Shown here in pieces: positions 18,172 through 18,371 of a stretch of 64,000 nt of DNA. Source of the stretch: an uncultured Clostridia bacterium. GTDB taxonomy: Bacteria > Bacillota > Clostridia > TANB77 > CAG-508. The DNA is taken from NCBI GenBank assembly GCA_934169775.1, contig CAKPOI010000005.1:974-64973 (forward strand), read 5' to 3'. Below the pieces are notes generated by a model, which saw only the letters and a program-made list of their open reading frames with translations, was not told where the DNA came from and did no database searches. The position numbers were made by a program, and so were the translations under genes. Positions within the stretch are counted from its first letter, which is position 1. The number at the start of each line of letters is the position of its first letter.

Positions 18172-18371
18172 AAAGATACTATGTGTGTATAGCTAAATAT
18201 ATTTTTCGGTTCAATACGCAACCTAAGAAATTCTAAAATAATTTAATGGCACCCTTCCACTTAGTCCTCGCTTCGCTCGACGTGAACTCTTTCCATGAAA
18301 TTATTTAAGAATTTCTAAGATTGCTCCAATCACATTCAAAATATATTTAGCTATACACACATAGTATCTTT
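18172..18371. repeat. nested-palindrome element, copy B (no REP-like termini; perfect 34-bp outer arms)
   Basis: AAAGATACTATGTGTGTATAGCTAAATATATTTT (18172..18205) is the exact reverse complement of 18338..18371. The core 18206..18337 is homologous to copies A and C. Confidence 0.85.

Follow-up and report, generated by a model that had tools for sequence, protein, structure and literature searches.

A dispersed palindromic MITE-like family in gut Clostridia and its bare member between smpB and fba: arms probably kept paired by arm-to-arm DNA recombination

Introduction

Copy B, a hairpin between smpB and fba of an uncultured Clostridia bacterium, is a bare member of a dispersed family of gene-less, palindromic, MITE-like elements of ~200 bp, the arms of which are probably kept paired by an arm-to-arm DNA recombination that flips the core between them. 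The term bare denotes the absence of canonical termini, of a target duplication and of REP brackets. The hosts of the family are small-genome, low-GC gut Clostridia. Copy B is an unusual variant of a selfish palindromic repeat and not a proven RNA gene. The window is the whole stretch of DNA that was analysed (64,000 nucleotides, contig C5 of genome G000), and coordinates without a contig prefix are positions in this window.

In the proposed course of events, copy B would have entered the smpB-fba spacer in the lineage of this species, downstream of the smpB stop codon and upstream of a terminator-like hairpin. The inverted arms would recombine with each other at the DNA level, with each crossover inverting the core, and, once the heteroduplex is resolved, a change on one side would be erased or else passed on to the partner arm (arm-to-arm gene conversion). 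In this manner, the arms would drift fast between copies yet never lose their pairing, and the asymmetric core would escape homogenisation and remain conserved. The exchange appears to be homology-driven, by RecA-type recombination or hairpin template switching, and to use no dedicated enzyme. We infer, in addition, a faster mutation of the arms and the original route by which bare copies like copy B were inserted.

Anatomy and setting of copy B

The outer arms of copy B are 34 nt each (left, AAAGATACTATGTGTGTATAGCTAAATATATTTT, 18172 to 18205; right, 18338 to 18371; no strand assigned) and are exact reverse complements that pair at 34/34 positions. Counting one extra T-A pair outside the arms, the hairpin spans 18171 to 18372 (202 bp). 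The arms enclose a conserved core of 132 nt (18206 to 18337, plus strand in an arbitrary core orientation), which is found in 13 full-length genome copies at 83-100% identity. All core features are given on this same plus strand. The core is bounded by a 5' bubble motif (TCGGTTCAATAC, 18206 to 18217) and a 3' bubble motif (TCCAATCACATTC, 18325 to 18337), both unpaired and nearly invariant; the 5' bubble is paired in 0/13 genome copies and is likewise unpaired in 51 distinct cores. Inside the bubbles, the 5' side of an inner stem (18218 to 18249) pairs with its 3' side (18293 to 18324), with both-side changes at 19 of 26 pairs in the 51 cores and with conserved A·A mismatches. The apex (18250 to 18292) is GC-richer and reads TTCCAC..GTCCTCGCTTCGCTCGAC..GTGAA, with apical stems that covary. 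Copy B folds on either strand into a single long imperfect hairpin (z = -13.6 and -12.5 vs shuffles) with a single apical hairpin.

The flanking genes are convergent: smpB (17694 to 18158, plus strand; Pfam PF01668, E 1.6e-59) and fba, a class II fructose-bisphosphate aldolase (18442 to 19371, minus strand; PF01116, E 9.6e-107). Copy B starts 14 nt past the smpB stop codon. Downstream of copy B, an inverted repeat (CATATACTTT / AAAGTATATG) followed by a T-run (CCCTTTTTT) forms a terminator-like hairpin (18395 to 18432, plus strand), which a consensus terminator scan did not call owing to the few G-C pairs in its stem. This hairpin is the putative smpB terminator and, if this assignment is right, the 3' untranslated region of smpB probably includes copy B. 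The element carries neither a promoter nor a terminator, no sigma-70-like promoter was found inside the core, and the open reading frame listings contained nothing conserved. ARAGORN detected no tmRNA and no tRNA at 16000 to 20000, and Rfam no tmRNA.

Traces of insertion were sought at the boundaries of copy B. No 8-9 bp direct repeat (at most one mismatch, boundary shifts of up to 3 nt) flanks the element, no perfect 4-5 bp repeat is present at its exact ends, and the canonical family termini (GTTACRATTCACAGC) are absent. With neither duplication nor termini at copy B, the evidence for mobility of the family does not extend to the insertion route of this copy.

Within the window, three core blocks quoted in an earlier note match only at 9599 to 9730, 18206 to 18337 and 26359 to 26490, all on the plus strand (shuffles, 0 to 0.03). 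The first and third are the cores of copy A, a hairpin at 9564 to 9765 (plus strand) bracketed further out by inverted REP-like GC-cored units (one at ~9524 to 9545), and of copy C, a hairpin at 26324 to 26525 (plus strand) with inverted REP-like units at ~26285 to 26310 and ~26545 to 26571. No such GC-cored unit brackets copy B. The earlier note had described this much from the letters of the DNA, and its description held: the core recurs, the arms of copy B are an exact complement over 34/34 positions, the inner stem differs from those of copies A and C in a compensated way, GC-cored terminal units are missing, and the convergent smpB-fba spacer is free of tmRNA features.

The family in the genome and among relatives

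Genome G000 (1.49 Mb, 27% G+C) carries 13 full core copies, including 10 outside the window, as well as two divergent members of full length and remnants that are truncated or have internal deletions. The full copies are all intergenic and each forms a hairpin of 194-210 bp. Their gene contexts are convergent, divergent and tandem, and no bias of core orientation is apparent across 15 copies. The arms differ between copies and pair within each copy (n = 13); the left arm of copy B is homologous to arms of the copies at C31:2489 and C1:50976 (identity ~70-77%). A perfect 9-bp flanking direct repeat is found at only 1/13 copies. REP-unit brackets occur at copies A and C and at C1:59122, C29:99 and C22:26087. 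The copy at C7:29495-29626 has ~4 tandem repeats of a ~22-nt AT-rich unit (AAATATTAAAATATTTTAAACT) that abut its arm on the left. The proposal that the arms are captured target palindromes was rejected, as the arms are homologous between copies and conserved termini lie outside the variable block.

The core is not confined to this genome. A BLAST survey of 301 genomes of the order located it in 60, which represent 12 of 43 genera and 2 families, and a pattern scan of species genomes placed it in ~12 metagenome-assembled genomes of uncultured gut Clostridium/Clostridia. The labels of these assemblies led to the rejection of a mollicute host. The copy number per genome varies among congeners, from none to at least 23. 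A copy from another family of the order (G103:C38, locus L134) is 87% identical to copy B over 154 nt; the contig appears to be the same as that of locus L018 (identical sequence around the element), and the two are counted as one data point. The patchy distribution, in which this other family has a copy and most genera of the order lack one, suggests horizontal spread. Literature searches found no published description of the family.

At the smpB-fba spacer itself, copy B is present in all seven conspecific contigs (metagenome contigs with identical SmpB and flanks at least 99.3% identical to the window), and the element is absent from 17/17 congeneric species in which the two genes are adjacent. 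An exact empty site for copy B was unobtainable, with the spacers of other species too diverged and all conspecific contigs filled. In one congener (G006, locus L078), REP-like units (GGGACGGTCC / GGACCGTCCC) occupy the smpB-fba spacer in place of the hairpin element. This spacer is colonised by different repeats in different species.

These data bear on a caveat of the earlier note, by which copy B might be a perfect hairpin created by a single duplication-inversion event in this strain. Arms that match at 34/34 positions would, taken alone, be compatible with such an origin. The hairpin is, however, shared by the 7/7 conspecific contigs and not unique to the strain, its arms have homologues in the copies at C31:2489 and C1:50976, and one common architecture unites the 13/13 copies of G000 with ~130 relatives. 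A one-off origin is, on these grounds, exceedingly improbable.

Ends and mobility

Relatives of 236 bp and ~470 bp have defined ends (GTTACRATTCACAGC / GCTGTGAATYGTAAC) and 8-bp direct target duplications, which are perfect at 8 sites and 7/8 at several more. Sites filled in these relatives are empty in G000. The relatives with such ends and duplications are thus MITEs. An 89-bp core-less form also has the family ends (GTTACAATTCACAG termini) and perfect 8-bp target duplications. Two of these mini-elements, L125 (G001:C17:1180-1390) and L126 (G014:C224:430-640), have a 24-bp centre that is reverse-complemented between the two species. No transposase gene was found between family termini at the loci examined and in four genomes. 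A candidate autonomous element at L004, with termini 1.8 kb apart, proved a false lead in which the second terminus was a chance match.

One core is found in carriers with differing ends. At six loci of genome G001 (L091 to L096), cores that are 99-100% identical lie in palindromes of ~400 bp. Their hypervariable arms of ~110-125 nt form mosaics across copies, attain a complementarity of up to 112/112 and terminate in REP-like units (AGGGGACGTTCC). The apex is also variable in relatives, in which GAGC-TAAA-GCTC or ATGGC-TAA-GCCAT stands in place of the GC box or a deletion of the box leaves TTCCAC-TAAA-GTGAA. Judged from the sequences, these mosaic apex variants suggest gene conversion between copies.

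A REP system is present in the same genome. G000 has ~200 units of a REP-like GC-cored family (consensus ~TGCTTTTGGGGACGGAGCAAAAAAGCA) and encodes four Y1 transposase homologues. One is a RAYT-like Y1/HUH homologue outside the window (PF01797 match at C20:22621-22959 in a 251-aa frame) that lies between two inverted REP units (C20:22158 and C20:23140; region C20:22158-23165), the classic layout of a RAYT. The REP units around copies A and C are members of the family that flanks this gene. Strong IS200/IS605-type Y1 transposase matches (127-139 bits) lie at C15:2334-2690, C3:27522-27878 and C23:244-591, and the C15 match has an in-frame TAG. Short, REPIN-like REP doublets with a spacing of 35-46 nt are also present in G000.

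The REP system raises the alternative that the arms are regenerated at each transposition, by a Y1/HUH transposase (RAYT or IS200-like) acting on folded single-stranded DNA or by fold-back synthesis, such that copies are born perfect and without duplications. In line with this scheme, target duplications are missing at copy B and at most G000 copies, one of the four Y1 homologues is REP-flanked like a RAYT, copies A and C are bracketed by REP units of the family that flanks the RAYT-like gene, and REPIN spacers are similarly variable yet hairpin-keeping (PMC3337134). By contrast, the compensated changes and inversions described below arise in place at fixed loci, among strains as well as among species, and need no transposition. 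The inverted terminal repeats and 8-bp duplications of the relatives are typical of DDE transposases rather than Y1 enzymes, REP units are missing from copy B, and fold-back copying would erase the asymmetry of the core as well. This route is therefore considered very improbable as the means by which the arms are kept paired.

Core inversion and paired change of the arms

Among the seven conspecific contigs, the copy B core is reverse-complemented relative to smpB and fba in two (L145 and L150). The arms of L145 still pair at 34/34 positions and differ from those of the window by a left G to A and an exactly opposite right C to T. The left arm of L150 has two substitutions and an indel, and its flanks differ at only 1/465 and 7/1488 bases. 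The arms thus look like mutation hot spots, on what are small numbers. The copy B apex of L146 and L148 shares a G to A change in the mini-hairpin (GTCCTCACTTCGCTCGAC) that breaks a G-C pair and is uncompensated, and the left arm of L148 contains one inserted nucleotide as well. Such uncompensated changes, therefore, occur and last for a time.

Inversion is not restricted to copy B. The whole segment between the inverted REP units of copy C is turned in 4/7 conspecific contigs. Three orthologous sites are inverted between species. At one, the G000 copy C1:50976 has flanks and arms in common with its G263 orthologue but the opposite core orientation, and both arm differences are compensated. 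Locus L011 compared to L042/L005 reveals an inversion of ~330 bp that has its breakpoints inside the outer arms and leaves the target duplication unchanged, and L018 and L043 are mutually inverted. The arms used at these inversions are unrelated in sequence and include AT-rich arms, REP units and outer MITE arms. Such variety speaks for an exchange driven by homology and against a single recombinase site. The contig records name k-mers that exceed the arm length of 24-34 bp, so the orientations should be read-resolved. Arms of this length are also short for RecA-type recombination, yet both orientations occur in near-identical strains; thus, a dedicated recombinase may be involved.

The arms also change in concert. 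Orthologue pairs have 12 compensated double changes in 926 pairs, compared to ~0.2 expected from the observed rate of single changes, and 5 of the 12 lie within 8 bp, like a conversion tract. Contrary to what the earlier note gave as a ground for refutation, the arms do not mutate independently. In G000, 28 of 38 arm columns have compensatory (both-side) changes, and the 427 arm pairs of the 13 copies comprise 424 Watson-Crick and 3 G·U pairs. A crude score of complementarity within vs between copies was uninformative against the AT-rich background and was replaced by per-column counts and by shuffle and slide controls.

Both orientations of one segment in one species would also be expected of a programmed invertible switch (inverton), in which a site-specific recombinase frequently flips the core and, with it, a promoter, terminator or antisense RNA whose effect on the neighbours depends on orientation. 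Consistent with a switch, both orientations are found between flanks that are at least 99.3% identical (copy B, 2/7; copy C, 4/7), the core is asymmetric and conserved, and several contigs break inside the element, as mixed orientations in a sample could cause. These contig breaks are, however, equally explained by the 13-copy core repeat. The arms are unrelated between copies, with breakpoints in inner arms, outer arms or REP units, the core is devoid of a sigma-70-like promoter, and copy B lies between convergent gene ends with no obvious target for a promoter switch. A programmed switch is thus an unlikely explanation, and arm-to-arm recombination is preferred as the cause of the inversions.

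Covariation and the question of a structured RNA

An alignment of 51 distinct cores has 94.8% of its cells paired, with both-side changes at 23 of 35 pairs. No shuffle out of 500 attained this count, and slid controls gave 5-13 pairs. Strong covariation of this kind, together with conserved loops and mismatches, the probable location of copy B inside the smpB transcript and a weak Rfam match, could indicate a functional structured RNA (a small RNA, or else a cis-acting element in 3' untranslated regions), with selection on RNA pairing keeping the arms complementary. The covariation is real but does not discriminate in favour of RNA, as it is predicted by arm-to-arm conversion too.

Other features argue against an RNA function. 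Wobble cells of the core stems are balanced (35 G·U vs 43 A·C) and favour neither strand, while those of the arms have a weak skew (78 G·T vs 52 A·C) in ~85 copies, many of which are related, such that the counts are non-independent. Thus, no strand-specific RNA signal was found in the wobble pairs of the core stems and arms. The arms are nearly devoid of G·U (3/427), and perfect pairing reaches 112/112 in a relative, a degree of pairing for which selection on RNA would have no need and which it would not easily generate. Relative to its neighbour genes, the core flips and has no orientation bias across the 15 copies, and the element is devoid of its own promoter and terminator. Copies decay by truncation and number from 0 to at least 23 among congeners, and one orthologous core has diverged by 5.5%, like its flanks.

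The Rfam match is to TwoAYGGAY (RF01731), on the minus strand of copy B, at 35.9 bits compared to a gathering threshold of 43 bits; no catalogued RNA family reaches its gathering threshold anywhere in the window. Only the closing (basal) stem of copy B is aligned, two hairpin blocks are skipped and the AYGGAY loops are absent. The match recurs in 0/41 congeneric genomes at E <= 0.01 and in none of six member-bearing loci, and the exact junction motifs of the element were found nowhere in the part of Weinberg's alignments that was searched. Membership in TwoAYGGAY was rejected on the basis of the sub-threshold score, the missing loops and the lack of recurrence in other members and genomes. A functional structured RNA is thus decidedly unlikely as the reason for the paired arms. 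The earlier note had left the cause as an either-or, with selection on secondary structure on one side and regeneration of one arm from the other on the other side; arm regeneration, in the form of intra-element gene conversion, is backed by the inversions and compensated changes, and selection on structure or RNA gained no specific support.

Conservation of the core

The unpaired motifs and A·A mismatches of the core are kept in every copy, beside homogenised arms. One orthologue pair has a core that is slow to change (97% identical vs 79-88% for the coding flanks), while that of C1:50976 and its G263 orthologue has diverged by 5.5%, as fast as the flanks. The kept motifs and the 97%-identical orthologous core are hints of a function beyond plain selfish DNA and, from sequence comparison, a function of the core for the element or for its host is possible.

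A more ambitious reading of the same conservation is that the ~130-nt core is a functional binding module (for protein, RNA or single-stranded DNA) housed in at least three unrelated palindromic carriers, with arms that serve as a flip-flop to form a mobile inverton. The carriers would be a MITE bounded by inverted terminal repeats and flanked by 8-bp duplications, the REP/RAYT doublets, and bare AT-rich arms. This reading is doubtful but arguable. If true, gut Clostridia would possess a dozen or more dispersed, fast-switching elements, and a mobile inverton would furnish 3' untranslated and promoter regions with a signal that depends on orientation.

Implications

The preferred explanation, in which recombination between arms maintains the pairing, has consequences for the annotation of repeats. 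Perfect covariation in a repeated hairpin can come from arm recombination, with no need of an RNA function, and the example is provided by copy B itself. This serves as a warning for covariation-based discovery of RNAs in gut metagenomes, where such families are common. Likewise, finders of invertible promoters may report these elements as switches, as the middle inverts between flanks that are at least 99.3% identical. The family is undescribed and widespread in abundant uncultured Clostridia of the human gut, where it occurs alongside a REP/RAYT system in the same genomes and has a core that is strikingly conserved and asymmetric.

Relation to known systems

Hairpin MITEs of bacteria include Correia/NEMIS of Neisseria, ERIC/IRU of enterobacteria, RUP of Streptococcus pneumoniae and the QMITEs of Coxiella (reviewed in PMC10969869). 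Similarly to these, the present elements are small, non-coding, dispersed and intergenic, with inverted ends and a copy number that is variable between relatives; related members have 8-bp target duplications and empty orthologous sites, and location in 3' untranslated regions is frequent. By contrast, the most conserved part of the present family is the asymmetric centre and not the termini, the arms are hypervariable yet perfectly paired, and the centre is found in both orientations in near-identical strains. Copy B also differs in its lack of canonical termini and duplication, and no parent insertion sequence was found.

REPINs are REP doublets that form hairpins and are mobilised by RAYT tyrosine transposases, and their internal sequence is different in every copy while hairpin pairing is kept (PMC3337134). 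Long hairpins that are variable but paired are common to both systems, G000 has the ~200 REP-like units and the RAYT-like gene, and copies A and C lie between inverted REP units with a segment between them that flips. REPINs, however, have conserved outer REPs and a variable middle, whereas the middle is conserved here. Copy B is free of REP units, and the 8-bp duplications of its family relatives are not made by Y1 enzymes.

TwoAYGGAY RNA (RF01731) is a multi-copy RNA of gut Clostridia and Pseudomonas that is associated with REP elements and is suspected of a spread like that of mobile DNA (PMC2864571; bioRxiv 10.64898/2026.09.22.753630). The multi-copy state, the very long closing stem and the association with REP units are shared with the present family. 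Unlike the RNA, copy B aligns by its closing stem only, is missing the two AYGGAY loops and has a match that does not recur.

The inversions also invite comparison to DNA switches and to much larger palindromes. Invertons are the invertible DNA switches of gut bacteria, such as the fimS-type switches and the Bacteroides promoters that are flanked by inverted repeats. As in an inverton, a short segment flanked by inverted repeats is present in both orientations within one species; the present element is instead multi-copy, with arms that are different in each copy, no detected promoter and, at copy B, a location between convergent gene ends. Arm-to-arm conversion and flip-flop are known of the human Y palindromes, the plastid inverted repeat and the yeast 2-micron plasmid. 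The present family resembles these large genomic palindromes in that its arms evolve in concert, its spacer inverts and compensated differences accumulate with no selection on pairing, but in an element ~1000x smaller with arms of 24-110 bp.
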